From an uncultured Phycisphaeraceae bacterium (lineage in GTDB: Bacteria > Planctomycetota > Phycisphaerae > UBA1845), in assembly GCA_964569425.1 (NCBI GenBank), contig CAZMVD010000006.1:4508-68507 (forward strand): DNA of 64,000 nt, given 5' to 3'. Both the position numbers and the translations under genes were made by a program. A model generated the notes under the pieces. It was not told where the DNA came from, ran no database searches, and saw only the letters and a program-made list of their open reading frames with translations. Positions 16,190 through 40,340 of this stretch are shown here, in pieces (position 1 is the stretch's first letter; each line of letters begins with the position of its first letter).

Positions 16190-19048
16190 ATGGAATGTCA
16201 CACTGTGTCACCTGAACCCCTGATCGAAGGAAACGACGACCCGCTGGTGGCGGAGTTGCGCGCCGCCTTCGGGTTTGGGACTCGCGGGCTGGGGCCGGAG
16301 GGCTCCCAGACGGATGGCGCGTCCAGCCGGTTATCGCCCTTCGGAACCGCCGCGCCGGAGCTATCCGCCCTGGCGCCGGCAAGCCGGCTCGGCGACTTTG
16401 AGATTCTTGGCGAGATCGGTCGCGGCGGCATGGGGGTCGTGTACCGGGCTCGGCAGGTGTCGCTGGATCGCCTCGTCGCGTTGAAGGTCCTGCCCGCGTC
16501 GCGGCAGCGACATGGCGCCTCCCTGGAACGTTTCCTGCGCGAAGCCCGCGCAGCGGCAAGGCTCAACCACGAAAACGTCGTACCCGTGTACTCCCACGGC
16601 GAGTGCGACGGATTCTATTACTACGCCATGAAGCTGGTCGAAGGCGTAACGCTCGACCTGGCGATCCGCTCCCACCCGGAACTGCTCAGTGCCACACATG
16701 CGTCATCGGCAGCGGCACGCCGCTTCAGCCGAACGAGGCCGGTGACAAAATCACTCACCGTTTCCGTGCCCGGGGCCGCCACCCCGCCCGCGCCCCACCC
16801 CGCCACCGCGGCGCCGGATGGGGAAGCCACCGTCACCTGCGACCACACCGCGCAAGACTACCGCCACATGGCGAACCTCCTCATCGGCGTCGCCGAAGGA
16901 TTGGCCCACGCCCATGCCAACGGCGTCGTGCATCGTGATATCAAGCCTCACAACCTGATCCTCGGGCACGAACAGCGTCTCTACATCACCGATTTCGGAC
17001 TTGCCTACCTGGTCAGCGAACCGCACGTCACCGTAAGCGGCGAAGTCATGGGCACCCCTGCCTATTTGTCGCCCGAACAGGTGCGCGGCCATATCCGCGA
17101 AATCGACCACCGCACCGACATCTACTCGCTCGGCGTCACGCTCTACGAAATGCTCACCAACACGCGACCCTTTCAGGGAGAAACGCGCGACCAGGTGCTG
17201 CACTCCATCAGCGCCAAGGACCCCGCACCGCCGCGGCGGCGAAACCCGCGCGTGCCCGTCGATCTCGAAACCATCTGCCTGCGCGCCATCGAAAAAGACC
17301 CCGCCCGCCGCTACCCCGGCGCGGCCGACTTCGCCGAAGACCTGCGGCGCTTCGTCGACGGACGCCCCATCCTAAGCCGCCGCGCCGGACCGATGGAACG
17401 CGCCGTCAAGTTTGCCCGGCGCAATCGTGCCGCTTCCACAGCCCTGGTGGCCGCAGTCATCATCGCCGCGGTGACCTCCGGATGGGGGCTCACGGCCTGG
17501 GCCGCCAAACGCGCGGAGGGGCAGCGCCTGGTACGAAAGGCGTACGAGCAACTGGTATACAACGACTATCGCCGGCCGGAGCGCATCGCCGCCGAGTTGC
17601 GGACCGCGGAAGAATTGAAAGCGCCGGCTACCGCGATGCACTTCGTCCGCGCGCTGGTCGCCATGGGTGAATCCAACGTAGAAAAAACGCACGCCGAACT
17701 GGCGCCCGTGCTCGCAGAAGATCCCGGTAATCGACAGGCGTTATACGTCCTGGCGTGGGCGCGGTGGCGGGCGGGCGATCCGGAAGGGTCGCGTGAGGCG
17801 TTCGCACAGGCCGAGGCGCTCGGCGGGGCGCAAGGCCCCGAAGAGTATTTCTTCCGCGGACTGGCCGCCCACTTTAATGATCCGCCGCTGGCCATGGAAT
17901 CCTATCGCCGCGCCAACCTGCTCCGCGCCCTCAACCACCAGTTCTTCCCGCAGGCCATGCTGCACCTGGCCCGTGCGCAAAATCAGCAAATGTACGCCCG
18001 ACGCACCGCCGATTCATTCGCCGAAACCGAATCCAGCCTGCGCACGCTCATCACCAACCAGTATTACGAGGCCTATCCCTATTATCTGCTCTCCATCGCC
18101 CATCGCCTCCGCGCCGAAGTGTACGAAAACAGCGCCGGAACGCGCGGCGCTTCGGATTCGCAGAACCATTTCGACGAAGCACTCCGCTGGGCCCGTGCCG
18201 GGCAGCAGGTCGATCCGGCAGACGATCGACCGGTCACCGCGGAAGCCGAATGCCTGGAACGGCTGGGCCGCTTCGACGAAGCACTGGCCGCGCGGAACCG
18301 CGCCATCGCCCTGGCCGACACCGCGCAAAAACGCTGCGAAGGTCTGCACTTCCGCTGGCGGCTGCATTACTGGCTGGGCGACTTCCCCGCCGCGCTGCAG
18401 GATATCGAGGCGCATTCCGCATGTATGCCCGATAATCTCTTCTACCGCCATGTGTATCCCGCGCTCGTCGCGGCGGAAATGGGTGACATGGCCACGGCAC
18501 AACAACACGCCGCGGCGCTCGCCGGTGCCCCCGACGCCGCGCACAGCCCCACCGCGTTGTTCACCATGCCGCGAACGATTCTCGCCGCCGGCGTGTGGCG
18601 GCTGCTGGGCCGGCCTGCGGAGGCGGCAGAATTGCTGGCGGCGTCCGATCCCGCCGGTTCCGAGAACAACGCGGAATCAACCGCCTGGTTGCGTGCGCTG
18701 TGGAGCTATTCTGCGGATCGAATGACCTTGGACGAGTTGGAGGCGATCGCCGCGGAATCTCCCCGGCCCTGGAAACTGATGGGAGAAGCCTGGTTTCACG
18801 CAGGCTTGAAATCGCTGGCGGCGGGCGATCGCGCGGCGGCGACCGCCGCCCTGCAACAGTCCTATCAGTCCTTCGATAGTGCCTTGGATTTCTCGTTTCA
18901 TTCTCGTATACTGTTGGTCAAACTGGCCGCGGATCCGCAATGGCCAATGTGGATTCCTCCCGTGCCACCCACGGAGCAGTTGCCTGTCCGGCTCCCGGTG
19001 CACAGCGGCAACGCGCCTGACCTGTCGTCCGCAGAAGGGGAAGAATAA
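16190..19048 (+). CDS. Ser/Thr protein kinase with TM segment and C-terminal TPR-like domain
   Basis: G-loop GRGGMGVVYRA, VALKVL, catalytic loop HRDIKPHNLIL, DFGLA, GTPAYLSPE. TM segment ALVAAVIIAAVTSGWGLTAWA, followed by helical repeats. Confidence 0.92.
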   Translation: MECHTVSPEPLIEGNDDPLVAELRAAFGFGTRGLGPEGSQTDGASSRLSPFGTAAPELSALAPASRLGDFEILGEIGRGGMGVVYRARQVSLDRLVALKVLPASRQRHGASLERFLREARAAARLNHENVVPVYSHGECDGFYYYAMKLVEGVTLDLAIRSHPELLSATHASSAAARRFSRTRPVTKSLTVSVPGAATPPAPHPATAAPDGEATVTCDHTAQDYRHMANLLIGVAEGLAHAHANGVVHRDIKPHNLILGHEQRLYITDFGLAYLVSEPHVTVSGEVMGTPAYLSPEQVRGHIREIDHRTDIYSLGVTLYEMLTNTRPFQGETRDQVLHSISAKDPAPPRRRNPRVPVDLETICLRAIEKDPARRYPGAADFAEDLRRFVDGRPILSRRAGPMERAVKFARRNRAASTALVAAVIIAAVTSGWGLTAWAAKRAEGQRLVRKAYEQLVYNDYRRPERIAAELRTAEELKAPATAMHFVRALVAMGESNVEKTHAELAPVLAEDPGNRQALYVLAWARWRAGDPEGSREAFAQAEALGGAQGPEEYFFRGLAAHFNDPPLAMESYRRANLLRALNHQFFPQAMLHLARAQNQQMYARRTADSFAETESSLRTLITNQYYEAYPYYLLSIAHRLRAEVYENSAGTRGASDSQNHFDEALRWARAGQQVDPADDRPVTAEAECLERLGRFDEALAARNRAIALADTAQKRCEGLHFRWRLHYWLGDFPAALQDIEAHSACMPDNLFYRHVYPALVAAEMGDMATAQQHAAALAGAPDAAHSPTALFTMPRTILAAGVWRLLGRPAEAAELLAASDPAGSENNAESTAWLRALWSYSADRMTLDELEAIAAESPRPWKLMGEAWFHAGLKSLAAGDRAAATAALQQSYQSFDSALDFSFHSRILLVKLAADPQWPMWIPPVPPTEQLPVRLPVHSGNAPDLSSAEGEE

Positions 19049-19049
19049 C

Positions 19050-20498
19050 ATGACCGTTCTCGTCGTTGCCTTTCGGGCTCGTTTTGCACTGGTCTTGGCC
19101 GGCGTCTTGTTGGGCGTGGCCGCCGTTACGACCTGGCTGCCGCGGGCCGCCGCCGCGCCCCCGGTAGCGCCGATCCCCACGCCCTTCTATTCCTTCGATG
19201 GCCAATCGCCCAAGGTTATGTCGGGTTCGTTCACCGCCGCGGATATCCTGCAACTCGGCCAGCCCGATCCAACGGTCGTGGTCGCGGGCACCGCCCTGGG
19301 CTTTACCTCACCCAACGACGAACTTGACGGCCTCTCCGCCGCCAACCAGGACCTCGGGTTGACCACCTCCTTTGTAATCATGTTCTCGGTCGATCGCGGC
19401 ACCCAGGGAAATGTCGCACCCGAGCCATCGAATGTCGCCGCCGCCGTCCCCTACAACGTGCAGGACCAGGCGGCCAAGGGCCAGGCAGCGGGCGACCTGT
19501 TCATGTCCGCGGCATTGTTCGATCGCGCCGGCATTATTCCCAACCAACTCGCCGCAGTGCTGCAGAACAACGTGCTGGCCATCAACAACTACGACGAAGG
19601 CGGCACCGACTACGCCGCCAATCCCGAAACCAGCGCCGCACAGTCCTCCACCGATCCCCAGGACAACGTCACATCCAGCACCCCCCTGCCCATCGCATTG
19701 GGGCGCGCGGCCGGCGGAGTGGTCCGGGTTTACTATTCCGCCACGGCGGCTTCGCCCTCGTTATTGAGCCTCAGTGCGCCCCAAATGCCCAGCGGCGCGA
19801 ACATCTTCTTCCACCCCGACCCCACCGATCCCGTGCTGATGCCCACGATCTTCGCCAGTTTCCAGCAACTGGGGCTGCTCCCGCAGGACGACATCAACGC
19901 CATGATCGTCATCGACGCCAACAACAATGGCCAGTTCGACGGCAATGACCAGGTCATCTACTCGCTCGCGGGCGAATCTCCCTCGCTGGAGATGATCCCC
20001 GGAACCAACCCCATTACCGGCCGAACCGATCTGTTCAGCTCCTCACCCGGAATGGGGGCGCGGCTGTATGCTTCCGGTGCGGACCTCGGCCTCGGCGCCA
20101 TGTCCGACAACATCGACGCACTGATGTTCCTGCCCTGTAACAATGCCGCCCAATGCGCGGCGCAGCACGGCATCCGCTCCCCGAAAGGCGACTTCAACGA
20201 CGACGGACAGGTGGACGCAACCGATTTTGAGGACCTCGAGCAGTGCTACACCGGCCCGGGCATTGCCTACGGTCCGGGCTGCGAAAAGGGCGACTTCGAC
20301 GGCGACGGAGATATCGATTGTGCCGACTGGCTTCAATTCCGCGATGCCTGGACCGCCGGTCCGCCGCTGCCGGATCTGGCGCAGTGCCCCAACAACGTGC
20401 CCGCCGCCTCCCAATGGGGCCTGCTGACCCTCGCGCTGCTGATGCTGGCAGCAGGATCAGCCATGCTCCGCCGGCGCCTTTCGCGCCCGGCCGCTTGA
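19050..20498 (+). CDS. Secreted protein with dockerin/EF-hand-like Asp repeats and IPTL-CTERM-like tail
   Basis: I moved the start to the ATG at 19050 (MTVLVVAFRARFALVLAGVLLGVAAV), 1 nt after the kinase stop. Contains GDFNDDGQVDATDFEDL and GDFDGDGDIDCADWLQF. C-terminus is VPAASQWGLLTLALLMLAAGSAMLRRR. Confidence 0.8.
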   Translation: MTVLVVAFRARFALVLAGVLLGVAAVTTWLPRAAAAPPVAPIPTPFYSFDGQSPKVMSGSFTAADILQLGQPDPTVVVAGTALGFTSPNDELDGLSAANQDLGLTTSFVIMFSVDRGTQGNVAPEPSNVAAAVPYNVQDQAAKGQAAGDLFMSAALFDRAGIIPNQLAAVLQNNVLAINNYDEGGTDYAANPETSAAQSSTDPQDNVTSSTPLPIALGRAAGGVVRVYYSATAASPSLLSLSAPQMPSGANIFFHPDPTDPVLMPTIFASFQQLGLLPQDDINAMIVIDANNNGQFDGNDQVIYSLAGESPSLEMIPGTNPITGRTDLFSSSPGMGARLYASGADLGLGAMSDNIDALMFLPCNNAAQCAAQHGIRSPKGDFNDDGQVDATDFEDLEQCYTGPGIAYGPGCEKGDFDGDGDIDCADWLQFRDAWTAGPPLPDLAQCPNNVPAASQWGLLTLALLMLAAGSAMLRRRLSRPAA

Positions 20499-23637: not shown

Positions 23638-23972
23638 GAGTCTCCCATTTTGATGGCGGCTTCGAGGCCGCGTTGTGGGTTCATGGCGCTCGCCAGCGTA
23701 TCGACAGGCGGCCATTCTGACAACGCGTTCGCGGCCTCGCACTTCTTCTTCCCTGACTGTCAAGTTCTCCCGCGGGCGGTCTATGAATGGATAGAGTCGC
23801 AAACCCTGAGCGCGGCCGCGGTCCTGCCTGAAGACACGATCCGCCGCGGCTCAGCCTCGTGCCCGCTACTTTCCCTTTCGTAGCGACTCCCAGGCGGCAT
23901 CGGGGGTATGACCCTCGCCCCGGGGAATGTTGCGCGCACGTCGGATTCGGTTGGATCAACGGAGGCCAGATC

Positions 23973-26900
23973 ATGAACCCTCACCATCACTTTTGCTCAA
24001 GGCACCATCATCGTCACGCTGCCCGCGGTTTGCTACTCTTTTCCTTTGCCGCCGCGCTGGGCGCAAGCCTTGCACTTGCCCGGCCGGGCGATGTGCGCGC
24101 CGGCACCGAAGTGGCGCCGTGGCTTCCGCCCGACACGCCGCGCTGGGCGACCGCCCCCCTACCGCGCGATGGGGCCAGTTTCAGCCTCGCGGATGCGCCA
24201 ACCATCAATCTCGACGACCCCCAGGCCGTCTTCGATCACGTCATCGCCTCGTTGCCCGACTCGGTGGACGTCATCCCCACCGAAAACTACACCTATTGGC
24301 GCTTCCACACGGCCGACAAGTACGTTTGGGGCAACCTGCGCCTCGAACCCGACACCCGCGATCAGGGCATCATCCACATCGGCTATTACGAATTCCGCGA
24401 AGAACTCACCGGCCCCGAAGAAGCCAATCCGCGCTATCGGCAGCTTGACGTGGGCGACGCACTCCGGCGCGTCGACGACTTCACCTACGACCTCACTTAC
24501 GGAGGCCGCACGGTCCGTTTTCTGCTCAACCGCGTCGACCAGCATGAACCGCTGGCCTTCAGGCTCGGCGAAGGCGAACGCTTCGTCATGCGCACCGAGG
24601 ACGAATCGCGCATTCGCTTTCACCTGATCTTCCACGAAGCCACCCGGAACTTCTTCTTCGTGGCCGATGAAGACCGCGCCCCTCTCGACGGCGCCCTCAT
24701 GGTCAGCGACGATCTCGCCCTCGACACCGGCACCGGCTTCCTGTTCTTCGTCGATAAGGCGCGCAACAACCGCAAGATCCTCGTCGGCGTCTATCGCCGC
24801 AACATCGCCCAGAACAACTATTACGACGGACCCGCCGACCAGCTTGCCGACAACTACATCCCGAACGTACCCCAATACAAGTCGTATCTGGAGCAGGCCT
24901 ACCCATTCACCCGCGGCGTGATCGACCAGTTCGGCTTCTACGTTCACGACCCCGGCAGCCGCGTGGCCGTCGCCCCCTACCACTCCTACCAGACCATTAC
25001 CGAAATGCAGGGCATGGTCGACGTGTGCAAAAACTACGGCGGCGTCCCAGAGATGATGGCCTGCATCATGCCCGGCGGCATGCGCCAGGAAACGCCCGAC
25101 GACCCCTCCGCAAACGACCCGTGGGGCGACACCTCCGCGCTGCTCAACCCCCAGGTCGTGTTCTCCGAGGACTGGGAGGGCGACCCCCTCGGCGCCGGCG
25201 GCTGGACGGCGTCAGGCCTTTGGCACCTCACCACCGACAGCCCCGCCACCTGCTCCCCGCCCGACGACTTCGTGTCGCCGGTAACCGCCGCCTACTACGG
25301 CATCGAAGGAGCCTGCAACTACGACAATGGCGGCCCCAACTGGGGAACCCTGACCTCACCCGTCATTCCCAACCTCCCCGATGGTTCGTTCCTGTACGTG
25401 CACTCGCGCCGCGTGTCCGAGGGACGCTGCGGCCAGCGCGACCTGAGCTTCATCGAAGTCTCCGTCAGCGGTGAGATCGATCCGCTCACCGGCTACAAAT
25501 TCCCCATCGGCAAGCGCTGGCAGTTCCTCTTTGAGAACTGCGACAACTCCAACGCCTGGCAGGAACTCGGCCCGCTGAGTCTGGAGCGCTTCGCGGGGCG
25601 CGACATCCAGATCCGCTTCCTCTTCGACGCCATCGACTTTCAGAACAATGGTTTCCTCGGCTGGATGGTCGACGACGTCGCCATTCTCACCGGCGAAAAC
25701 GCCGCCGGACCAGACTATTCCGCGCCCCGCCACATGGGCGGCGTCTCCTGGCACTTGCCTGGTGCCACCTTCCTGCCACCAGGACATCGCCACCTCACCG
25801 GTATGACCTGGCACCAGATCACTTCGACTTGGAACCACCTGGCCGGCCTCTCCTGGCCCGAAAACCCCAATCCCGGCGGTGGCAATCTACACATGTCGGG
25901 AACGACCTTCGTGCCGCGGCCTCGTCCGCGCCCCCGCCCCGGTGGTGGAGGTGGTGGCGCGCCCCCGCCGCGCAAGCCGCCGCACATGGCCGGTACCACC
26001 TGGCACCTTGCCGGCGTTACCGCGCCGCCCCCCGGAGCCAAGCACGCGGCGGGAATCACCTGGCACCTGGAGAACATCACCTTCATCCCGCCCTGGGCCA
26101 AGCATAACTCCGGTTTCACCTGGCACGTCTGGGGCGTGTCCTTCATACCGAAAGACGCCAAGCACGCCGCCGGCATCACCTGGCATCTGGAAGGCATCAC
26201 CTTCATCCCCGGCGGCACCAAGCACATCGCCGGTACCACATGGCACCTGCCCGGAATCACTTTCGTACCTCCCGGCTCCAAGCACGCCGCGGGCATCACC
26301 TGGCACCTGCCCGGAATCACTTTCATCCCGCCGGGAACCAAGCACAATTCCGGCACCACGTGGCACGTGGCCGGCGTCACCTTCATCCCGAAGGACTCCA
26401 AGCACGCCGCAGGAACCACCTGGCACATCGCCGGCGCGACCTTCATCCCCAAGGGCTCCAAGCATAACAGCGGCTCCACGTGGCACGTCGGCGGTGTGAG
26501 CTTCATTCCACCCGGAACCAAGCACAACTCCGGCTCCACCTGGCACTTCGGCGGCCAGACCTTCATCCCACCCGGCACCAAGCACAACAGCGGTTCCACG
26601 TGGCACGTCGGCGGCGTGAGCTTCATACCGCCCGGAACCAAGCACAACTCCGGTTCCACGTGGCATGTCGGCGGCCAGACCTTTATCCCGCCCGGAACCA
26701 AACACAACTCCGGTGTCACCTGGCACGTGGCGGGCGCCAGCTTCATTCCGCCCGACGCGAAGCACAATTCCGGCTTCACCTGGCACTACAACGGACAGAC
26801 CTTCATTCCCGCCGGCACGATCCACAACTCCGGGATCACCTGGCACTACAACGGCCAGTCCTTCATCCCGCCGGGAACGATCCACAATTCCGGCTTCACC

Positions 26901-28826
26901 TGGCACTACAACGGCCAGTCGTTCATCCCACCGGGAACGATCCACAACTCGGGCATTACCTGGCACTTCAATGGGGAGTCGTTCATTCCGGCGGGTACCA
27001 GGCACAACTCCGGCATCACCTGGCACGTGAACGGCGTGTCGTTCATTCCGCCGGGTGCCAAGCACGTGGCAGGCACCACGTGGCATATGGCCGGGGCCAC
27101 GTTCATGTTCCCGGTCATCGGACCGGAAGTCCCGACCGTCGATCCCGAGCAAGAAGGCTCCGGCGATGCGCGCGGCACAGAAGATCCGGCGACCCTGGTC
27201 TACCCGAGCTGCACCGTCCCCGCCGATTGCCCGCCGCTCGAGTGCCACAGCGCGGCATGCAATCCGGAGGACAATCTCTGCGAGTACACCGCCACGCCCG
27301 GCGACCCCTGCGACGACGGCGACCCGGCGTCGACCGGCGATACCTGCAATCAGTTCGGTGATTGCATCGGTGTACTCGTGCCCGGCAATCCGTGCGATGA
27401 CTTCAACCCTTGCACGGGCGGGGACACGATCAACAACATGGGTCAGTGCGTGGGTGCGCCGACCCCGTTCGTACCTTGCGATCCGGGGAACCCCTGCATC
27501 ATCCCCGGCTCCGCCTCCTGCGATCCCATGGGGAATTGTGTCGGTATGTTTGCCGGCGGCATGCCCTGCGACGACGGCGACGAAACCACCCTGGGAGACA
27601 TGTGCGATCCATTCCTGGGGACGTGCGCCGGCAGCTTCGATCTTGACTGCGACGACCTTATGGAATGCAACGGACAGGAGGAGTGCGATCCGCTGATCGG
27701 AGTCATCGCGGGCACACCGCCCGACTGTCTGTTCCCCTGCCAGGGGCTGCACGGCGTGTGCGTCGATAACGACCCGGCCAACTCCGGTTGCGTCGGTCAG
27801 GGCGCCGACGAAAACTTCGACCTGCCCAACGACTGCGCAGAGTCCGAGTGCGACGACTTCCCCGAGCCCGACGTTCCGGTCGATTGCGACGACGACAACC
27901 CCTGCACCGTCGACGATTGCGATCCGTCCACCGGCGATTGCGTCAACACGCCCGTGCCCGACGGAACCACCTGCGACAGCGGCGACGACTGCGCCATCGG
28001 CACCTGCCAGAGCGGCATCTGCGAACGCAGCGTGATCGTCGACTGTACCGGCCTGGACTGCAACCAGAACGGGTTGGAAGACGGCCAGGAAACCGCCGGC
28101 GGCCTGGCCCCCGACTGCAACAACAACCGTCAGCCCGACGAGTGCGACGTCGCGCCCGAAGGTCCGTCGCAAGACCTCAACAACAACGGCGTCCCCGACG
28201 AGTGCGAAGGGCTGGTGAACCCGGCCGCAGTCGCTCCGGCCCCGCACGATCGTCAGAAGAACCGTTACATCTCTTTCGCGCCCAACAACCTCGGCTCCGT
28301 CGCCTTCAAGGTCCGACGCGTTTCGCCCGGACCTGCGGTCGACGTCGGGTGGGTGAGTGCCCCCGATGCCAACGGTTTGGCCAAGATCGAACCGGGACCG
28401 GTTACCCGGGTCTGGAACGAGGCGACCATTCACGGCGGCGATTGCGAGATCGTCCCCGTGGCCGAGTTCGAAGTGCTGGCCACCGCCGACGGCGTCACGT
28501 TCGCGCCGGGGCTGATCGTGCCGACCATCGACCTGCCCAGCGGCGGCAAGTTCTGGGGCGACACGGTGGGCAGCTTCGACGGCATACAGTGGACGGCGCC
28601 GAACAACATCGTGAACGCCAACGACTTCCTGGCGGCCTTGCAGAAGTTCCAGAACCTGCCCACAGCGCCGCACATCACCGTGGTGGATGTGCAGTCGGTC
28701 AGTTCCATCGATCCGTGCCTCAACCGGATCGCCAACATCGCCGACGTGTTCCTGCTGCTCCAGGCGTTCCAAGGCAACGCCTACCCCTTCACCACCAACC
28801 CGGCGACCTGTCCGCCCTGTCCGTAG
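23973..28826 (+). CDS. Giant (1617 aa) secreted multidomain protein: unknown N-domain, MAM/galactose-binding-like domain, 20-aa His/Trp repeat array, Cys-rich repeats, shared CPxCP C-terminal domain
   Basis: ATG at 23973 preceded by ggagg. His-rich signal-like N-terminus MNPHHHFCSRHHHRHAARGLLLFSFAAALGASLALA. Contains GGWTASGLWHLT...IQIRFLFDAIDFQNNGFLGWMVDDVAI, then the repeats described in the next feature, then the Cys-rich and C-terminal domains. Confidence 0.85.
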   Translation: MNPHHHFCSRHHHRHAARGLLLFSFAAALGASLALARPGDVRAGTEVAPWLPPDTPRWATAPLPRDGASFSLADAPTINLDDPQAVFDHVIASLPDSVDVIPTENYTYWRFHTADKYVWGNLRLEPDTRDQGIIHIGYYEFREELTGPEEANPRYRQLDVGDALRRVDDFTYDLTYGGRTVRFLLNRVDQHEPLAFRLGEGERFVMRTEDESRIRFHLIFHEATRNFFFVADEDRAPLDGALMVSDDLALDTGTGFLFFVDKARNNRKILVGVYRRNIAQNNYYDGPADQLADNYIPNVPQYKSYLEQAYPFTRGVIDQFGFYVHDPGSRVAVAPYHSYQTITEMQGMVDVCKNYGGVPEMMACIMPGGMRQETPDDPSANDPWGDTSALLNPQVVFSEDWEGDPLGAGGWTASGLWHLTTDSPATCSPPDDFVSPVTAAYYGIEGACNYDNGGPNWGTLTSPVIPNLPDGSFLYVHSRRVSEGRCGQRDLSFIEVSVSGEIDPLTGYKFPIGKRWQFLFENCDNSNAWQELGPLSLERFAGRDIQIRFLFDAIDFQNNGFLGWMVDDVAILTGENAAGPDYSAPRHMGGVSWHLPGATFLPPGHRHLTGMTWHQITSTWNHLAGLSWPENPNPGGGNLHMSGTTFVPRPRPRPRPGGGGGGAPPPRKPPHMAGTTWHLAGVTAPPPGAKHAAGITWHLENITFIPPWAKHNSGFTWHVWGVSFIPKDAKHAAGITWHLEGITFIPGGTKHIAGTTWHLPGITFVPPGSKHAAGITWHLPGITFIPPGTKHNSGTTWHVAGVTFIPKDSKHAAGTTWHIAGATFIPKGSKHNSGSTWHVGGVSFIPPGTKHNSGSTWHFGGQTFIPPGTKHNSGSTWHVGGVSFIPPGTKHNSGSTWHVGGQTFIPPGTKHNSGVTWHVAGASFIPPDAKHNSGFTWHYNGQTFIPAGTIHNSGITWHYNGQSFIPPGTIHNSGFTWHYNGQSFIPPGTIHNSGITWHFNGESFIPAGTRHNSGITWHVNGVSFIPPGAKHVAGTTWHMAGATFMFPVIGPEVPTVDPEQEGSGDARGTEDPATLVYPSCTVPADCPPLECHSAACNPEDNLCEYTATPGDPCDDGDPASTGDTCNQFGDCIGVLVPGNPCDDFNPCTGGDTINNMGQCVGAPTPFVPCDPGNPCIIPGSASCDPMGNCVGMFAGGMPCDDGDETTLGDMCDPFLGTCAGSFDLDCDDLMECNGQEECDPLIGVIAGTPPDCLFPCQGLHGVCVDNDPANSGCVGQGADENFDLPNDCAESECDDFPEPDVPVDCDDDNPCTVDDCDPSTGDCVNTPVPDGTTCDSGDDCAIGTCQSGICERSVIVDCTGLDCNQNGLEDGQETAGGLAPDCNNNRQPDECDVAPEGPSQDLNNNGVPDECEGLVNPAAVAPAPHDRQKNRYISFAPNNLGSVAFKVRRVSPGPAVDVGWVSAPDANGLAKIEPGPVTRVWNEATIHGGDCEIVPVAEFEVLATADGVTFAPGLIVPTIDLPSGGKFWGDTVGSFDGIQWTAPNNIVNANDFLAALQKFQNLPTAPHITVVDVQSVSSIDPCLNRIANIADVFLLLQAFQGNAYPFTTNPATCPPCP
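25731..27122 (+). repeat. In-frame 60-bp tandem repeat array (19 clean units from 25983, plus 3 degenerate units upstream)
   Basis: Units read HNSGSTWHVGGVSFIPPGTK, HAAGITWHLPGITFIPPGTK and similar. 25983 + 19 x 60 = 27123, so the phase is perfect. Confidence 0.95.
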
Positions 28827-28861
28827 GGTAACGAGCCGGCAGGACCGCTTTCTCGACTCGA

Positions 28862-28885
28862 GGGCCGCTCGGCAACGAGCGGCCC
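28862..28885 (+). terminator. Rho-independent terminator after the giant gene
   Basis: gggccgctcg-gcaa-cgagcggccc followed by ttttc. Confidence 0.75.
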
Positions 28886-29047
28886 TTTTCATTACGTGCC
28901 GTCCCTCGAAGTGGAGGGCGCCGAACCGGTCACGATGGGCAAGGTCAGTTCCCACGGATCAGCATTGGATCGGCCGCCTGTGATTCCGGGTAGCCGCCCT
29001 GGTGCGGTTCAACAAATGGTGGTTCCTGAAACAATGCCCGCCACAAG

Positions 29048-30739
29048 ATGATCGAGTGGAAAGACAACTGCGCGATCCCGGCTGCTGATGCGATGAACAG
29101 CGCGCGCCCCGCCCCATGCTGGCCGTTCGCGGTCCTCGCCGCGGCCGCGCTGCTGCTCATCTACTTCCGCCTGCACGCCTTCGACCTCCCCCTCGAAACC
29201 GACGAGTGCAACTACATCTACATTGCCGGTCGCCTGCTGGCCGGCGACCGACTCTACGTGGACGTGTGGGATCACCAGCCCTTCGGGGTGTTCGTGCTGT
29301 TCGCGGGCGTCAGCGCCCTGTTCGGCGATGCCCCGTCCGTGTTCCGCTCGTTGGCGCTCGCGTTCTCGCTGGTCTCGCTGGGACTTATCTTCCAGATCGT
29401 GCGGCGTTGCGCAGGCCCCCTCGCCGCCGCGGCGGCGACACTGATGTTCGCGCTCTGCTCCTCCGATCCCGGAACGGCCGGAGAGGGGTGCAACCGCGAA
29501 ATCTACATGAACACGCTGGTGCTCGCGGCGTGGTACGGCGCGCTGGGCGCCGGCCCGCGCCGTCGTTGGCCGTGGCTGGCGGCAGGGGCGGCACTGGCCG
29601 CGGGTTCAACGATCAAAACCATCCTCGCGGTGCACTGGCTGGCCCTGGCGGCGTGGGCGGTCTATTCCGACAAGGCGTCGCGCTCGACCGTGCAGGAACC
29701 GCGCTCGGCGGCAGCGCGGGCGCCGTCGCGCTGGGGCCGGTTGGCGTATCTGGCGGCCGGGCCGGCACTGGTGTGGGCCGGGGCCTTCGCCTGGTTCGCG
29801 GTGACAAATCGATGGCACGAATTCTACGACGCGGTGTTCGGCTTCAACCTCAGCTACAGCGGGCGGAATGAGTCGTTCTGGGTTCGCTTCATCGACTTTT
29901 TTCGGCCGGGCAGCCGCCAACAGCCGTTTGTGTTCCACAGCGCCTGGCCGCTGTGGCTGGCGGCCGTCCCCGCGCTCGCCTGGCTGGCGCTCGAGGTCCT
30001 CCGCCGCCGGCGCCGCGACGCCGCGGCCATCGTGCTTCTCGCCGCCGCCAATTACGCAGCCGTGTGCCTGCCCGCGCAGTTCTGGCCGCACTATTACCAC
30101 CTGATGATTCCTTCGCTGGTCGTCGCCGTGGCGGTCGCCGCGGAGCGACTCTGGAGTGCCAATTACATGGCACTCTCGAACGGGCGGGCGCGCCGCGCCG
30201 CGGGCGCCACCCTCCTGGTCGCACTGGCCGCCTGGCTGGCGGTGACACAATATCGGCACTATCTCAGCCAGCCGCCTTTCGGCATCACCGTGCAGCGTTA
30301 CAACTCGCGCGATTTCTGGGGCCGCGCCCACGGGGAGAACATCGCCCGGGTCACCGATCCGGAGGATAATATCTTCGTCTACGGCAACGAAGCGTCGTTC
30401 TATTACTACGCGCGGCGCCCCTGCGCCTCCCGCTTCACCATGATTACCGCCCTGCGCAGCGGCTATGCAGGCCACGAAGCGCGCCGCCGCATCTTGCTGG
30501 AGGAGATTCGCACGCGCCGCCCCCGCCTCATTCTCGTGGTGCTTGGCGAGGAGGCGTTTCCCGCATGGGCCGATTTTCTGCCCACCCGCTACGACGCGGT
30601 GGGCTGGGATTTTCGCGACCGCCCCCCACACGACCCCATCCTCATGATCCTCTGCGACCGCGATCGCCCCATCGCCAACCTCGACTGGAACTGGGACCGA
30701 TCGAGCGTGGGAGGCTGGAACCTGGGGGAACAGCGCTGA
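29048..30739 (+). CDS. GT-C fold membrane glycosyltransferase (GT39/PMT/ArnT-like)
   Basis: Polytopic membrane protein. The first loop carries the DE-x-x-Y motif (LETDECNYIYIAGRL) typical of ArnT/PMT-type enzymes. Alternative start MNSARPAP at 29093. Confidence 0.7.
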   Translation: MIEWKDNCAIPAADAMNSARPAPCWPFAVLAAAALLLIYFRLHAFDLPLETDECNYIYIAGRLLAGDRLYVDVWDHQPFGVFVLFAGVSALFGDAPSVFRSLALAFSLVSLGLIFQIVRRCAGPLAAAAATLMFALCSSDPGTAGEGCNREIYMNTLVLAAWYGALGAGPRRRWPWLAAGAALAAGSTIKTILAVHWLALAAWAVYSDKASRSTVQEPRSAAARAPSRWGRLAYLAAGPALVWAGAFAWFAVTNRWHEFYDAVFGFNLSYSGRNESFWVRFIDFFRPGSRQQPFVFHSAWPLWLAAVPALAWLALEVLRRRRRDAAAIVLLAAANYAAVCLPAQFWPHYYHLMIPSLVVAVAVAAERLWSANYMALSNGRARRAAGATLLVALAAWLAVTQYRHYLSQPPFGITVQRYNSRDFWGRAHGENIARVTDPEDNIFVYGNEASFYYYARRPCASRFTMITALRSGYAGHEARRRILLEEIRTRRPRLILVVLGEEAFPAWADFLPTRYDAVGWDFRDRPPHDPILMILCDRDRPIANLDWNWDRSSVGGWNLGEQR

Positions 30740-31776: not shown

Positions 31777-31827
31777 CCGCGCACACGTGGGCAGCGGCCG
31801 CTTCGACATGTCCCCTCCAAAGAAAAA

Positions 31828-31858
31828 CCGCGGGTGGTCTGCAGTAGACCACCCGCGG
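31828..31858. terminator. Bidirectional hairpin between convergent genes
   Basis: ccgcgggtggtct-gcagt-agaccacccgcgg, a 13-bp stem flanked by A-rich 5' (agaaaaa) and cgttcttc 3' sequence. Confidence 0.65.
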
Positions 31859-31937
31859 CGTTCTTCATGTTCGGTTCATCGGCGGCGCTGTCGCCGTTGC
31901 GGATCGATCCGCCCAAACATGCAGCGCGTGCCGTGAA

Positions 31938-34517
31938 CTAACTCAACGCCTCGCGGCGGGTGAAGGCGAGCTTCCCGGCCACAAGCAGCATCAGCCCCAG
32001 CACCACCAGTCCCCACTCCGAAACCGTGGGGATGGCGCCGACGCACCCGGGTGCAAAGACCGCGTCATCCACGCCGGGACACAGATCGTTGCAGTCGTCG
32101 ATCCCGTCGCCGTCGCTGTCGCCGGTTTCAGCTACGCCGCAACCGCAGTTGCCCGGCGCGATCTTGTTGGGATCGTTGGGGCAGCCGTCGTTGCAGTCGG
32201 CGGTGCCGTCGCCGTCGGAGTCGTCGTCGGGCGCGCCGCAGCCGCACTGGCCCGGGTTGATCTTGTTCGGATCATTCGGACAGCCGTCCTCGCAGTCGGC
32301 GGTGCCGTCACCGTCGATGTCGTCGTCCGGCGTGCCGCAACCGCAAATGCCCGGGTCGATCTTGCCCGGGTCGTTGGGGCAGCCGTCGTTGCAATCGGCA
32401 GTGCCGTCGCCGTCGGTGTCGGTATCGGGCGTGCCGCAGCCGCACTGCCCGGGAGCGAGCTTGTTCGGATCCTGCGGACATTCATCGCCGCAGGTCTCGT
32501 CCGTGCCGTCGCCGTCGGCATCCCCCTCGCAGGTGGTGCCGTCGCCGACATAGGTTCCTCCGCCGGCGGTGCAATCGGTCGGCGTCACATCCGCGGTGCA
32601 GGCGCCGTTCGTGCAGCAGGCGCCGATGCAATGAAACTCGGCATAGAAGCCGGGGCTTCCGATGTCGCCGTTGGCCGAGGCATAGGAATTCTGCGAATCA
32701 CCTACGCTCGCCAGCCGCCACAGGAAGATGTTGTCGGCGCCCACCGCATCGCGGCACGGCCAGCCGGCAAACCCGTTGGTGCGGATGGTGCCGGGGAAGA
32801 CCTGGTCCCCGTAGGTGAGCCGATCCTTGAGTACGCCGTTGCCATCGTAAAGGTTGATCTGATCTGCGCGGCCGAGGTTCACCGTGTTGGAGCCGATGAC
32901 CACGATGCCCGCAAGGCTCCAGTCGGCGATGAAGGTGGCGTCGGGGTCCTCTGCCAGGATGACGGATTGACCGGGCAGGACGACGCCGAACGCGGAAAGG
33001 TCCACGGCGCCCGGGAGGTTACTGTCGTCGTCGTAGCTCCAGCCGGTCATGTCCACCGGATTCGCGTCGAGATTGGTAAACTCGACGTATTCGCCCCCGG
33101 TGCCGGTGTACATGTATTCGGTGATTCGCACGTCGCCGTCGGCGGGCGCTGGACAGTTGGTGCTGCCGCAGTCCGTTCCGTCCCCCTGGTAGCTTCCCCC
33201 CGCCTGCGTGCATTGGGTGTATGTGACATCACTGCACAGCCCCACCGAGCAGCACGCGCCGGTGGGGATGGCGTTGCAAGATACGGCCACGTAAACGCCA
33301 GGGCTGCCAACGTCACCTTGCGACGAAGCCACCGAGCCCTGGCTGTCGCCCACGTGCGAGAATTGCCATTGGAAGATGTCGTTGGCGCCGGCCGCCTCGT
33401 CGCACGGCCAGCCGCTGATGTTCTGCGTGCGAATCGTGCCCGGAAAGTTCTGATCGCCGTAGGTGAGGCGGTCCTTGAGCGTGCCCGAGGCGTTGTAGAG
33501 GTTGATCTCGTCGTTGCGTCCCAGCCCCGCTCCGTTATTGCCAACCACCGGCACACCGACCAGTCCCCAGTCCGCGATGAAGCTCGCCGCGGGCCCTTCG
33601 ACCAGCAGGCCCGACTGGCCGGGCAGCAGCGTGCCGAGTCCGCTGAGGCTGACCGTTCCGGGAATCTGGCTGTCGTCGTCGAAGCTCCAGCCGGTCATGT
33701 TGACGGGCACGTTGTCGAAGTTGGTGAACTCGATGAATTCCGCGCCGGAGCCGGAATACATGTACTCGGTGATGCGGACGTCGCCATCCGTGGGTGCCGG
33801 GCACGAAGTCGTTAGACAGTCGGTACCGTCGCCCTCGTAGACGCCGCCGCCGTTCTCGCAATCAACCTGGGTCACCGGGTCGGAGCATACGCCCGTGGTG
33901 CAGCACGCGCCGGTCGGCGTCGCGCCGCAATTGAACAGGACGAACGCTCCGGGGCTGCCTACCGCACCCCCGGCCGACAGGAAGGAATTCTGCACATCGG
34001 CGACGGCGGAAAGCACCCACTCATACGCATCGTTCGCGCCCAGCCCCGCGGCGCACACCCACCCGCTGGGATTCTGCGTGCGTATGGACCCGGGGAAGTC
34101 CTGATCGCCGAACTGAAGCTGATCGACCAGCACGTTGGAGGCATCCCAGATATTGATGGTGTCGTTTCGTCCCAGCGCGGCCACGCCGCCGGAGCCGCCG
34201 ATGATCTTGACGCTCAGCGCCAGCCCCCACGCCGTACGAAAGGCGGCTTCCGTCGCATCGGTGATGATCACCGATTCGCCAGGCGCGACGCTGCCGAAGG
34301 CGCTCAGATCGAACGAGCCCGGCGTGTTGGAGTTGTCGTCATAACTCCAGCCGGTCATGTCGACGGCCGCGCCGCCCACGTTGGTCAGCTCGACGAACTC
34401 GCCGTCCGGCCCGGTGTACATGTACTCGGTGATGCGAATCTGCGCGACGGCACTCGACGCGCACAAGCCAAGCAGCCCCACGGCCGCCGCCAAACTCGCC
34501 CTCTTCCCTACCATCAT
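31938..34517 (-). CDS. Surface protein: 3 lamin-tail-domain modules, 4 thrombospondin-type-3-like Asp/Cys repeats, IPTL-CTERM tail
   Basis: Start MMVGKRASLAAAVGLLGLCASSAVAQ at 34517 with aggaggg upstream. LTD signatures (I/V)RITEYMY(T/S)G...E(F/Y)(V/I)E(L/F)TN...DMTGWS(Y/F)DDD occur three times. DxDGDGTADCxDGCPNDPxKIxPGxCGCG occurs four times. The protein ends AIPTVSEWGLVVLGLMLLVAGKLAFTRR. Confidence 0.88.
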   Translation of the reverse strand: MMVGKRASLAAAVGLLGLCASSAVAQIRITEYMYTGPDGEFVELTNVGGAAVDMTGWSYDDNSNTPGSFDLSAFGSVAPGESVIITDATEAAFRTAWGLALSVKIIGGSGGVAALGRNDTINIWDASNVLVDQLQFGDQDFPGSIRTQNPSGWVCAAGLGANDAYEWVLSAVADVQNSFLSAGGAVGSPGAFVLFNCGATPTGACCTTGVCSDPVTQVDCENGGGVYEGDGTDCLTTSCPAPTDGDVRITEYMYSGSGAEFIEFTNFDNVPVNMTGWSFDDDSQIPGTVSLSGLGTLLPGQSGLLVEGPAASFIADWGLVGVPVVGNNGAGLGRNDEINLYNASGTLKDRLTYGDQNFPGTIRTQNISGWPCDEAAGANDIFQWQFSHVGDSQGSVASSQGDVGSPGVYVAVSCNAIPTGACCSVGLCSDVTYTQCTQAGGSYQGDGTDCGSTNCPAPADGDVRITEYMYTGTGGEYVEFTNLDANPVDMTGWSYDDDSNLPGAVDLSAFGVVLPGQSVILAEDPDATFIADWSLAGIVVIGSNTVNLGRADQINLYDGNGVLKDRLTYGDQVFPGTIRTNGFAGWPCRDAVGADNIFLWRLASVGDSQNSYASANGDIGSPGFYAEFHCIGACCTNGACTADVTPTDCTAGGGTYVGDGTTCEGDADGDGTDETCGDECPQDPNKLAPGQCGCGTPDTDTDGDGTADCNDGCPNDPGKIDPGICGCGTPDDDIDGDGTADCEDGCPNDPNKINPGQCGCGAPDDDSDGDGTADCNDGCPNDPNKIAPGNCGCGVAETGDSDGDGIDDCNDLCPGVDDAVFAPGCVGAIPTVSEWGLVVLGLMLLVAGKLAFTRREALS

Positions 34518-34693
34518 GGTGCAGTCCCTCCTCGTTGTTTGCTGGGTTGTTTCACGGCTTCGAAGAACGCGCCCGGCCACGGGCCGCGGCCTCAACAAGC
34601 GCTTCCACACAAGAGGCGAGACGGTAACGTGTCGACGTTGGGCCTACGTCAGCGCGAAGTTAAGAAACTGTGAATTCGTGGGCGCCGCGAGAC

Positions 34694-37665: not shown

Positions 37666-40281
37666 ATGCGGAAAAAGTTACAATCGTGTTTGGTCTTGAT
37701 GGCAATTATGGTTGCCAGTCCCGCGAACGCCGTAGTGGTCATCAATGAAGTGTTCATCAATCCGCCCGGATCGCTGGATGACACCGCGGAATACATCGAG
37801 TTGATGGGCACGCCGGGCAAGAAACTCGACGGGTATGCGATTGCTTTCTTGGCCGGCGGAATGGCCAAGTATTACCCGCTCGACAGCATCCCGCCGATTC
37901 CCGGTGAGGGGGCCGGCTGCTGTCCGGAGATCGACGAGTTTTTCAGCCTCGACGGGCTCTCGCTGGGCGCCAACGGGCTGTTGGTCATCGCTCATGGAGC
38001 CGATTTCGACTATCCCACCGTGTTGTCGGATACGAACCTTCGTGCCAACTGGGAAGCCGACCCGGTCTGGAACGGCCTGCTGGATACGCCCGGCCGGCTG
38101 GAAAACGACGCATCGATGACCATCCTGCTGATCCGCAACCGGCCCGGCATCACAGAGGCCGATCCCGCCAACCCGGCCGGGTTGCGCTGGGGCAAAGATA
38201 TTGCTCACGACGCCGAATTGATCCGACCGGTGATCGATCCACAGGACGGAATGATGAAAGACCAATGGGGCGACGGCAATCTCGACAAGGGGCAGCCCAA
38301 CGGGCTGGGGGGCAATACGCTCGACTTGAAGGGAGCGCTCACCCTCGGCACGTTTGACGATCTCGAAGTCGTTGACGAAGTCAGTTACGAGAGCGAGCGC
38401 GGCTGGGAGTACGACGTGGACGGCCGCCACGTGGACGACGGAAGCAGCATCGCCGGACTTCCCTATCGGCACGTGCACGCCCTCGATGATCCGCAGGGCT
38501 TCAACCCGGATGCCTTGACCCGCGTCGACTATCGAACCAAGGGGCCGGGGTGGACGCCCGCCGCCGGCGCCACCGGCGAAATGGGCAACGGCAACAACTG
38601 GCAGGACACCGCCACCGAGCAGTGGATCCGTGGTGAATCCACGGTGTTGTTCAACCGCGCCGCCGGTTCGTTTGATTTCTATTATGACAACTCGGCCAAC
38701 ACCAACCCCGATTCCATACAGCCATTCATCGTGAACGTCCCGCTGTGGCTCAATGACGGCGTGGGAACAAACTACGACTTCACCAGTCAAACGACCTATC
38801 CCATCATGGCCGGTCGGGTGAATCCGCTGTCCATCCCCTTCATTCCGGGCGACGCCGATCGCGACGGCGACTGCGACACCGACGACATCGCCAAGATTGC
38901 CGCGGTGTTCGGCGACGACGACTGGATCTTCAGCAACAGCTTTGCCGATGCCCCCGAAGGCGACGACGGCGACCCGGCTGCGCAGACACGCCCCTGGGAT
39001 GTCGACGCCACCGGCGACAACGGCATCGAAGCCAGTGACCTGCAATGGGCGCTCAACTTCCAGGGAAGCACCAACGGGCGCGTGGTCGGCGTGCGGTATG
39101 ACAGCACCACGCCATCGGCCACCGGCGTGTTTCTCAATTCCAATGCCTCCGTCGCGTGCACCGTCACATTGTCGACCAACGTCCCGAGCGGGAATCCCCT
39201 TGACAACTTGTCGACGAGCGATGTGATCGAAGTCACGGTGAGCGGCCGCGTCACCGCCGGGGCCATTACCACGATCAACCAGCAAAACGGCATTATGCAG
39301 TATGTGCACGACGCGCTCCTGGACATGTCCGGCGTGCTGAAAATCGCCAGCGTGCAGGCGCTGAGCCCCTACAACACGACGCGCGCTTCGTTGATGACCC
39401 TGGACGGCGTCAGCGGCGATCTCGGCGCAAGGCGGATCAACGGCCATACCACGAACTTCGTTCAGGGGCTCACGTCGGCCGTTCCGCTCTATCGGATTAC
39501 GCTGCAGCCGGTGGGATTGGGAACGACCACGCTTTCCATTGCACCCGCAACGGAACCCAAGTTCGCCGCGAGTACGCCGTTTGGGTTGAAAGTGGGGCGT
39601 ACGAATCACAACGGTAACCCGTCGGGCGCCGCGTATCCGGCCGGGGTGACTTTCACCGTGACCACCAGTTCCCTGCTGGCGCCTAACGCCGAGACCGGCG
39701 GCTTCGCGAAGAACCGTTATATCTCCTTCGAGCCGAACAACGCCGGCGTGGTGGCGTTTCGCGTCACCAAGACGGGCGGCCCCGGGGCCGGCGGTGTGCT
39801 CGGATGGGTGGCGGAACCGGGCGCGGTGGACGCCGCGAAAATCGTTGCGACGCCGGTCTTCCGAGTGTGGGATGAAGCCGTCGTGCACGTGGGTGACTGC
39901 CCCGTCATTCCCCTGGCGTCCTACGAAATCGAGGCGACCACCGACGGCGTTGTGTTCAGCGATCCGCTGCCTATCGTGACCATATCGCAACCCGGTGCCG
40001 GAAAGTTCTGGGGCGATACGGTGGGGTCGTTTGATGGGTTTGAGTGGAGTGGGCCCAACGGTCTGGTCAACGCCAACGATTTCCTAGCCGCCCTGCAGAC
40101 GTTTCAGTTGCTGCCGCAAGGTCCTTCATTCTCGGTGGTCGACGTGCAATCCGTCAGCAGCATCGACCCGTGCCTCAACCGCATCGTGAACATCGCGGAT
40201 GTGTTTCTGTTGCTCCAGGCATTCCAGGGCAACACCTATCCGTTCACCACCAACCCGGGTTCCTGCCCGGTCTGCCCGTAG
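37666..40281 (+). CDS. Secreted lamin-tail-domain protein with dockerin-like repeats and shared CPxCP C-terminal domain
   Basis: Signal MRKKLQSCLVLMAIMVASPANA. LTD signature VVINEVFINPPGSLDDTAEYIELMG. Contains GDADRDGDCDTDDIAKIAAVFG. The last 189 aa are homologous to the C-terminus of the 23973-28826 protein. Confidence 0.88.
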   Translation: MRKKLQSCLVLMAIMVASPANAVVVINEVFINPPGSLDDTAEYIELMGTPGKKLDGYAIAFLAGGMAKYYPLDSIPPIPGEGAGCCPEIDEFFSLDGLSLGANGLLVIAHGADFDYPTVLSDTNLRANWEADPVWNGLLDTPGRLENDASMTILLIRNRPGITEADPANPAGLRWGKDIAHDAELIRPVIDPQDGMMKDQWGDGNLDKGQPNGLGGNTLDLKGALTLGTFDDLEVVDEVSYESERGWEYDVDGRHVDDGSSIAGLPYRHVHALDDPQGFNPDALTRVDYRTKGPGWTPAAGATGEMGNGNNWQDTATEQWIRGESTVLFNRAAGSFDFYYDNSANTNPDSIQPFIVNVPLWLNDGVGTNYDFTSQTTYPIMAGRVNPLSIPFIPGDADRDGDCDTDDIAKIAAVFGDDDWIFSNSFADAPEGDDGDPAAQTRPWDVDATGDNGIEASDLQWALNFQGSTNGRVVGVRYDSTTPSATGVFLNSNASVACTVTLSTNVPSGNPLDNLSTSDVIEVTVSGRVTAGAITTINQQNGIMQYVHDALLDMSGVLKIASVQALSPYNTTRASLMTLDGVSGDLGARRINGHTTNFVQGLTSAVPLYRITLQPVGLGTTTLSIAPATEPKFAASTPFGLKVGRTNHNGNPSGAAYPAGVTFTVTTSSLLAPNAETGGFAKNRYISFEPNNAGVVAFRVTKTGGPGAGGVLGWVAEPGAVDAAKIVATPVFRVWDEAVVHVGDCPVIPLASYEIEATTDGVVFSDPLPIVTISQPGAGKFWGDTVGSFDGFEWSGPNGLVNANDFLAALQTFQLLPQGPSFSVVDVQSVSSIDPCLNRIVNIADVFLLLQAFQGNTYPFTTNPGSCPVCP

Positions 40282-40305: not shown

Positions 40306-40340
40306 CCGGCATCGCGCGGACCCGCCCCGCGCGATGCCGG
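40306..40340 (+). terminator. Stem-loop terminator candidate
   Basis: ccggcatcgcgcgg-acccgcc-ccgcgcgatgccgg followed by ctctgtttcc. Confidence 0.6.

Follow-up and report, generated by a model that had tools for sequence, protein, structure and literature searches.

A C-terminal domain of secreted proteins from Planctomycetota that resembles an X module-dockerin dyad

Two large secreted proteins from an uncultured Phycisphaeraceae bacterium, which are otherwise unrelated to each other, end in the same domain of about 200 residues, and the last five residues of both have the pattern Cys-Pro-x-Cys-Pro. What is this domain, and what does it do for the proteins that carry it? The two genes (which we call gene 1 and gene 2) lie in a 64,000-nucleotide stretch of contig CAZMVD010000006.1, which we analyzed as a whole and refer to as the window (Table 1). 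A sequence-only reading of the window had suggested that the tails are an old module that either joins proteins by interchain disulfides or anchors or sorts them. In our best reading, the domain is a divergent, disulfide-stapled dyad, specific to Planctomycetota, that is built like the X module-dockerin (X-Doc) pair of cellulosomal scaffoldins. It may serve to dock secreted proteins at the cell surface.

The tails are indeed a common C-terminal module. The translations quoted in the sequence-only reading match the DNA exactly (28260-28829 and 39712-40284). When the complete open reading frames (ORFs; 23859-28826 and 37621-40281) are compared by BLASTP, the last 190 amino acids align with 123 identities (65%, E = 2e-64). 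No other segment does better than E = 0.08, which agrees with the claim that the upstream parts are unrelated. A tblastn search of the whole window with either tail finds these two copies only. The proposed limits of the domain need some adjustment: it is a discrete C-terminal unit, but it starts about 12 residues further upstream, at a P-x-P-H-D-x-x-K-N-R-Y motif. As for the other ends of the proteins, the open frame of gene 1 reaches upstream to a GTG at 23859 and that of gene 2 to an ATG at 37621. If translation starts at 23973 and 37666, each protein carries a Sec-type signal peptide.

How old is the similarity? The sequence-only reading had compared two short DNA strings (which we located at 28680 and 40135) and noticed that they differ where the protein is identical. 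This silent divergence extends over the domain. The codon-aligned nucleotide identity is 65%, the identity at third positions is 49%, and 57 of the 123 identical residues have differing codons. Between the two copies, we estimated 1.27 synonymous substitutions per site (dS) and 0.31 nonsynonymous substitutions per site (dN) with the Nei-Gojobori method, for a dN/dS of 0.25. These values fit the description of the tails as an old and selectively kept module. Most of the change is in the first part of the domain, with a dN of 0.47 over the first 100 codons; over the remaining codons, which make up the helical half described below, it is 0.17. Judging from the codons, the two copies are the result of an old duplication or of independent acquisition, under purifying selection. 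A recent duplication or a chance similarity is excluded by the E value of 2e-64, the dS of 1.27, and the presence of just two copies in the window.

We then asked whether the domain belongs to a known family. Neither tail has a match in Pfam-A at E ≤ 1, and when the tails and 32 diverse members of the family were compared to NCBIfam, nothing reached threshold. We found no sequence relative with a solved structure at E ≤ 10. The domain is thus new with respect to described domains, as had been expected: no Pfam model matches it, and no NCBIfam threshold is reached. The precomputed Pfam annotation of family members is blank across the domain. The sole curated model that the tails touch is that of a GC-type dockerin (see below), and a literature search found no paper on that family. 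We conclude that the domain is undescribed in the libraries and the literature that we searched.

The family is nevertheless large. In an exhaustive HMMER search over 1.84 billion cluster representatives (clustered at 50% identity), we found 1050 representatives at E ≤ 1e-3. Of these, 487 reach E ≤ 1e-10 and 133 reach E ≤ 1e-30. (A single-sequence, word-indexed search returned five homologues only, so the family is under-represented in that kind of search as compared to the exhaustive one.) The members whose source is named are all from Planctomycetes/Planctomycetota, including metagenome-assembled genomes (MAGs) of Phycisphaerales or Phycisphaerae. All of these are annotated as "hypothetical protein" except for one, which is named for an unrelated passenger domain (DUF4215).

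To understand what kind of domain this is, we turned to its predicted structure. We modeled the 200-residue unit with AlphaFold2 (AF2), using a 63-sequence alignment. The whole domain is predicted with high confidence: the mean predicted local distance difference test score (pLDDT) is 96, the predicted template modeling score (pTM) is 0.91, and every residue has a pLDDT of at least 70. Even the last ten residues have a mean pLDDT of 87. The model has seven strands within residues 15-100 and helices at residues 132-142, 151-154, and 172-182. In other words, in the model the N-terminal part is a seven-stranded beta-sandwich of the fibronectin type III (FN3) or immunoglobulin (Ig) type, and it is packed on a C-terminal module of three helices. 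When the whole domain was compared to the PDB and BFVD with Foldseek, no match reached E ≤ 1e-3, and the best of the weak matches are to FN3/Ig-type sandwiches over about 100 residues.

The helical half looks like a degenerate dockerin with two duplicated loop-helix (F-hand-like) segments. First, the half contains a loop-helix unit twice, at residues 124-146 and 164-186, and the two segments align with an hhalign probability of 97.8% (E = 7e-13). In the AF2 model, there is a helix behind each loop and a short helix in between. Three positions are conserved in both loops: position 5 (Asn or Asp in 89-98% of sequences), position 9 (Asn in 87-90%), and position 12 (Asp in 99%). Second, the one curated model that the tails touch is NCBIfam's dockerin_GC (NF041540), which matches 19 of the 32 diverse members at E < 1 (best E = 1.4e-5). 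Positions 10-64 of the 67 positions in this model align to residues 122-183. Third, when the helical half is folded alone (pLDDT 76) and compared to the PDB with Foldseek, dockerins account for 10 of the 19 top matches (5m2o_B, 2mte, 2ccl_B, 4fl4_D, 4dh2_D, 4uyp_B, 4uyq_B, 8x39_B, 5nrm_B, and 1ohz_B), with target-normalized template modeling (TM) scores of 0.33-0.61. The lower confidence for the isolated half fits with its being dependent on the sandwich. Finally, hhalign places both loops in the dockerin register of the window's two Pfam-positive dockerins, without reaching significance, since each template was a single sequence.

The cysteines suggest how the end of the chain is held. We scored the covariation of cysteines over 188 near-full-length instances of the domain, and they occur at few fixed columns and in pairs. 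C74 (in the VGDCEIVP motif of the sandwich) and C196 (the first terminal cysteine) are both present in 167 instances and both absent in 4, with 17 discordant. C165 (in the DPCLN motif of loop 2) and C199 (the second terminal cysteine) are both present in 85 instances and both absent in 96, with 7 discordant. A further pair, at columns 42 and 55, is present in 39 instances, absent in 149, and never discordant. Both window copies have the four-cysteine pattern. Because each terminal cysteine covaries with an internal cysteine, the cysteines of CPxCP probably staple the tail to the body of the domain through intradomain disulfides, C74-C196 and C165-C199.

The two terminal cysteines are not equally conserved, so the expectation that both would be kept holds for the first of them only. 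C74 is present in 183 of the 188 instances and C196 in 168 (89%), and both are invariant in alignments A1 and A2. The second terminal cysteine is present in just 87 of the 188. Pro197, which follows C196, is found in at least 90% of the sequences, and it is kept both where it ends the chain and where the chain continues, so Cys-Pro seems to be a structural mark of the domain's boundary. It is at this boundary that the family's proteins stop.

Where in proteins does the domain lie? We built a hidden Markov model (HMM) of the family from the 32 diverse members (alignment A1) and applied it to 247 collected proteins. The domain is at the C-terminal end of 233 of them, which is in line with the C-terminal location that had been proposed from the two copies in the window. 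Of these 233 proteins, 202 end exactly at Cys-Pro (115 as ...xCP, 76 as ...CPxCP, and 11 as ...GCPxDxCx6PCP), and 14 more have one to three additional residues beyond it. Some proteins (P0006, P0007, P0012, P0034, P0055, P0080, P0087, and L005) have internal copies beside the terminal one. In the internal copies, the chain runs on past the cysteine into Cys-rich linkers.

The domain is also found in many proteins of a single genome. Our scan of loci took one genome per species, and 17 of the 19 loci come from one groundwater Planctomycetota MAG (JACQXM01). This answers the question of how many copies a genome may hold: when the DNA fetched for these loci was searched with the HMM in six frames, at least 19 genes of JACQXM01 were seen to carry the domain. 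In all 17 of the JACQXM01 loci, the domain is at the end of the ORF, and most of the 11 5'-complete ORFs that we inspected have Sec-type signal peptides. The passengers are mutually unrelated: they include FG-GAP/ASPIC repeats, a matrixin (M10), a BNR sialidase-like protein, trypsin with a P-domain, an LDL-receptor class B propeller, PMP repeats, a reprolysin (M12B), and a subtilase (S8). The CPxCP and xCP subfamilies coexist in this genome.

We noticed several unusual members of the family. In P0150 (2714 amino acids), the domain or its helical half occurs seven times, always internally and never at the end, with acidic, thrombospondin-type-3-like linkers between the copies; P0150 could be a scaffold-like protein or one that takes part in homotypic interactions. 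At the other extreme, P0001, P0002 (which is the same as L010, 3680-4606), and P0003 have just 236-306 amino acids, with a Gly-rich motif (GGxYxLxGTxGQ...GGFWS) and then the domain alone. P0002/L010 and P0003 start with a signal peptide, and none is evident in P0001, whose domain is 86% identical to the window's copy 1. In L012 and L017 (around amino acids 1330-1583 of the open frames), P0042, P0054, P0093, and P0044, the sandwich is interrupted, near HMM positions 76-84, by an insert of 30-40 residues that is rich in Cys. These variants also have a longer Cys-rich tail after YP(A/F)Y, and their end is still CPxCP(P). A third tail subfamily has the pattern YPFGCPxDPCxDxxxxPCP, with three terminal cysteines and a Cys-Pro end (P0060, P0072, P0077, P0078, P0083, P0089, P0168, P0171, and L013).

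We propose that the domain is a noncatalytic and noncovalent docking or anchoring handle, organized like an X module-dockerin dyad, which puts diverse secreted passengers on a common receptor. We would give this proposal an even chance of being right. We favor it because the module is self-contained and probably stapled, because it is attached to many unrelated Sec-exported passengers, because the order and size of its parts are X-Doc-like, and because the helical half is the most constrained part. In this mechanism, the sandwich and the degenerate dockerin would form a two-part extracytoplasmic dyad. The end of the chain would fold back on the body, with C74-C196 pinning it to the sandwich across the family. 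The window copies both belong to the CPxCP subfamily, where C165-C199 would tie the end to the second dockerin loop as well. From the C-terminus of unrelated Sec-exported proteins, the dyad would dock on a common receptor, either of the cell envelope or of a multi-enzyme complex at the surface. The stapled Cys-Pro end would also make a rigid, exposed terminus that is hard for exopeptidases to attack. Docking as the function, resistance to proteases, and a receptor to dock on are inferred from these observations, as are the disulfide bonds themselves.

There is a precedent for this kind of proposal. A cohesin/dockerin "planctosome" that assembles peptidases was hypothesized for freshwater Phycisphaerae from canonical cohesin and dockerin matches (PMC6461901). 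Its parts include LTD (the Lamin Tail Domain), the P-domain, reprolysin, S8, and thrombospondin-like Cys-rich repeats (PMC6461901). These parts overlap with the repertoire of passengers that we found.

Several observations weigh against the docking proposal or against the likeness to dockerins. Positions 1 and 3 of the loops, which are Ca2+ ligands in dockerins, are lost: position 1 is Trp in loop 1 and Asp or a gap in loop 2, and position 3 is Pro or Ala in loop 1 and Cys or Val in loop 2. Because these canonical ligands are absent, it is doubtful that the domain depends on calcium. All of the scores against NF041540 are sub-threshold (for the window copies, 16.6, 16.9, and 18.4 bits, versus a cut-off of 29), and Pfam's Dockerin_1 (PF00404) matches just 1 of the 32 diverse members, at E = 0.3. 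The Foldseek E values for the isolated half are not significant (0.75-6.3). A profile search with the helical half reached no annotated dockerin, just members of the family, all of them "hypothetical protein." The disulfides are predicted from covariation only. We identified no receptor, and none of the proteins that we scanned from the window and the loci matches Pfam's Cohesin. Finally, a pure docking model does not demand that proteins end so strictly at Cys-Pro, with no ragged tail; the free C-terminus could itself be recognized.

An alternative is that the domain is for secretion or sorting, like the C-terminal domain (CTD) of the type IX secretion system (T9SS). A dedicated planctomycetal machinery for export or attachment would recognize the fold or the Cys-Pro end and might cleave it or link it to the envelope. 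This could account for the extreme C-terminal position in 233 of 247 proteins and for the 202 that stop right at Cys-Pro, as well as for the range of secreted passengers (at least 19) within one genome. Also, the N-terminal half is Ig/FN3-like, as in T9SS CTDs, and neighboring genes in the window use IPTL-CTERM tags, which implies that the organism invests in C-terminal addressing. But a sorting signal does not explain the internal and tandem copies: the seven copies in P0150 are all internal, and P0006, P0007, P0012, and L005 have both kinds. Nor does it suit P0002/L010 and P0003, which nearly stand alone: apart from the domain, they have little more than a signal peptide and a short Gly-rich region. 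In NCBIfam and Pfam, no T9SS CTD matches at E ≤ 1, there is no transmembrane or basic tail, and we found no candidate sorting enzyme. The covarying internal partners of the terminal cysteines suit structural staples better than they suit an acceptor site. Overall, we consider this alternative unlikely. The sequence-only reading had suggested an anchoring or sorting signal. A shared role in anchoring or targeting, which is the first half of this suggestion, is also what we find most plausible, but the lack of a transmembrane helix and of a basic tail, together with the internal and tandem copies, does not fit a classical sorting signal.

We also considered the exosortase-type signals (PEP-CTERM and IPTL-CTERM) and rejected them: the tails end in ...YPFTTNPATCPPCP, without a hydrophobic helix or a cluster of Arg and Lys. 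The IPTL_CTERM models match neighboring genes and not the proteins of gene 1 or gene 2.

Another alternative is that the domain binds a carbohydrate, the cell wall, or a substrate: the sandwich would bind a glycan, and the helical half would be a mere buttress. A sandwich with an accessory subdomain, attached to hydrolases and adhesin-like passengers, is consistent with this. The invariant residues W43, W64, W111, D113, W123, and Y187 could make a sugar-binding face, and the internal tandem copies recall arrays of carbohydrate-binding modules (CBMs). However, it is the dockerin-like half and not the sandwich that is best conserved and evolves most slowly (dN of 0.17 versus 0.47). Among the Pfam and NCBIfam matches there is no CBM, S-layer homology (SLH) domain, or other binding family, and the passengers that we found are mostly peptidases rather than glycoside hydrolases. 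A binding module therefore seems doubtful to us as well.

A bolder possibility is that the domain is the address tag of a new planctomycetal surface-display system, in which a receptor or an enzyme reads the free Cys-Pro end: that is, a planctosome with a non-cohesin partner. The Cys-Pro end would be captured noncovalently, or else it would be covalently attached or processed, so that dozens of enzymes per cell would be held on the envelope. We regard this as a long shot.

Least of all do we believe that CPxCP acts like a hinge, with paired interchain disulfides that dimerize the proteins or tether them covalently, as the sequence-only reading had suggested: CPPCP and CPVCP do have the C-P-x-C-P pattern of the IgG1 hinge core, and they lie at the very end of exported proteins that are bound for an oxidizing compartment, but about half of the family has just one terminal cysteine (the xCP end), the terminal cysteines are gained and lost together with specific internal ones (C196 with C74, and C199 with C165) when a hinge would need both of them to be free, the prediction has an ordered tail that packs on the domain (pLDDT 87), and in internal copies the motif runs straight into further sequence, which together make a hinge very improbable.

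The features of the two genes are listed in Table 1. As the sequence-only reading stated, each gene is followed by a hairpin; both hairpins are GC-rich.

Table 1. The two genes, their C-terminal domains, and nearby hairpins, in window coordinates.
Feature	Position	Strand	Description
Gene 1 (secreted giant protein)	23973..28826	+	Signal peptide MNPHHH...ALA|RP, N-terminal region, His/Trp repeat, Cys-rich modules, C-terminal domain
C-terminal domain, copy 1	28224..28826	+	200 amino acids and stop; AF2 pLDDT 96; HMM match from 28230 to the end
Beta-sandwich of copy 1	28224-28529	+	Residues ~1-102
Dockerin-like helical half of copy 1	28530-28823	+	Residues 103-200; ends in CPPCP
Cys74 codon of copy 1	28443..28445	+	VGDCEIVP motif; probably forms a disulfide with Cys196 (28809-28811)
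Cys165 codon of copy 1	28716..28718	+	DPCLN motif; probably forms a disulfide with Cys199 (28818-28820, second Cys of CPPCP)
Terminal C-P-P-C-P of copy 1	28809..28823	+	
Terminator-like hairpin after gene 1	28860..28889	+	12-bp stem, GAGGGCCGCTCG-gcaa-CGAGCGGCCCTT (28860-28887), then a T-run; RNAfold
Gene 2 (secreted protein)	37666..40281	+	Signal peptide MRKKLQSCLVLMAIMVASPANA|VV, weak LTD match, acidic EF-hand-like repeats, Thr/Ser-rich beta region, C-terminal domain
C-terminal domain, copy 2	39676..40281	+	Ends in CPVCP and stop; matched by the HMM from 39694 onward, through the last residue
Terminator-like hairpin after gene 2	40306..40340	+	14 pairs, 12 of them G-C

Upstream of its Cys-rich modules, the gene 1 protein has about 20 copies of a 20-residue His/Trp repeat. 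At the DNA level, this appears as a 60-bp tandem array at 26031-27065 (+ strand), with at least 16.5 copies at 75% match and a 120-bp super-period. The repeat (H-x-x-G-x-T-W-H-x-x-G-x-x-F-I-P-P-G-x-K) is rich in His and Trp and has no match in Pfam. It could bind metal or form a beta-solenoid. The Cys-rich modules match the Dicty_CTDC repeat in a Pfam scan. An S8 subtilase elsewhere in the window (12873-15131, + strand) has four Dicty_CTDC Cys-rich repeats (E = 1e-25), so the type of repeat found in the subtilase also sits just upstream of gene 1's new domain.

Directly downstream of gene 1 is a glycosyltransferase of the PMT_2 family (dolichyl-phosphate-mannose type; 29048-30739, + strand), which might glycosylate its secreted neighbors. 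After it is an intergenic stretch, and then, on the minus strand, a gene for an 890-residue protein (31938-34610) with three Lamin Tail Domains (E = 1e-52) and a 99-bp tandem repeat (32086-32471). This protein has an IPTL-CTERM signal above threshold, that is, a different C-terminal addressing system nearby. A perfect 14-bp palindromic hairpin at 31827-31859, with a terminator score on both strands, lies just past the stop of this minus-strand gene and before the intergenic stretch that follows the glycosyltransferase gene.

Two other genes in the window encode dockerins. The ORF at 18879-20498 has a Dockerin_1 match and a sub-threshold IPTL-CTERM-like tail. The other (55592-61009, + strand) encodes a protein of 1805 residues with six FGE-sulfatase-type stretches, a BACON_2-like region, and a canonical Dockerin_1 at the C-terminus (amino acids 1749-1797). 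This implies that the genome uses classical dockerins beside the new module.

Why does this domain matter? Planctomycetota export very many giant multidomain proteins, and how these are retained at the surface is largely unexplained. The domain can mark out one class of surface proteins in uncultured bacteria of the Phycisphaerae type, and it is an abundant, lineage-specific module (over 1000 clusters at 50% identity) that occurs on at least 19 secreted proteins of one genome. It could be used as bait for the receptor, which makes the published planctosome hypothesis concretely testable. Because it is compact, stapled, and predicted with high confidence, its fold might also be of use as a display or docking tag. 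The elements of the fold and the logic of docking through the C-terminus are familiar; the family is large, and its expansion into paralogs is striking.

How does the domain compare to known systems? Like the T9SS CTD of Bacteroidota, it is a folded Ig-like sandwich that ends many unrelated secreted proteins of one genome. Unlike the T9SS CTD, it is twice as large, with an added dockerin-like half, and it has internal and tandem copies; there is also no sequence match between the two. We know of no T9SS in Planctomycetota.

With type I dockerins (PF00404), the domain has in common a loop-helix segment of about 22 residues that occurs twice, with conservation of Asn/Asp at position 5, Asn at position 9, and Asp at position 12, and dockerins are the best matches to the fold of the isolated half. 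They differ in that the Pfam model does not recognize our domain, the repeats here are spaced by 40 residues, and the Foldseek matches are not significant. The GC-type dockerin of NF041540 is also a C-terminal, anchoring-type module, and it aligns to part of the helical half. But the scores are below its cut-off, and the model does not cover three parts of our domain: the sandwich, the junction WGDxVG, and the tail YPFxxxPxxCP(xCP).

The most similar architecture is that of the X-Doc dyad of cellulosomal scaffoldins, such as the type II X-Doc of C. thermocellum CipA, which anchors scaffoldins to the cell surface. There are clear differences. The sequences have no detectable similarity, and the loops of our domain are without the Ca2+ ligands at positions 1 and 3. 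Our domain has one to three predicted disulfide staples and ends in Cys-Pro. It is found in Planctomycetota, and mostly on peptidases and adhesin-like proteins instead of a cellulosomal scaffoldin. The AF2 model nevertheless has the X-Doc architecture, which is a likeness in architecture alone and does not imply homology to X modules. In both, an Ig-like sandwich of about 100 residues comes first, a dockerin-type helical module of 70-90 residues comes right after it, and the two are packed as a unit (pTM of 0.91 for our domain). And in both, the dyad is at the C-terminus, where it presumably anchors a secreted protein to a receptor at the surface.

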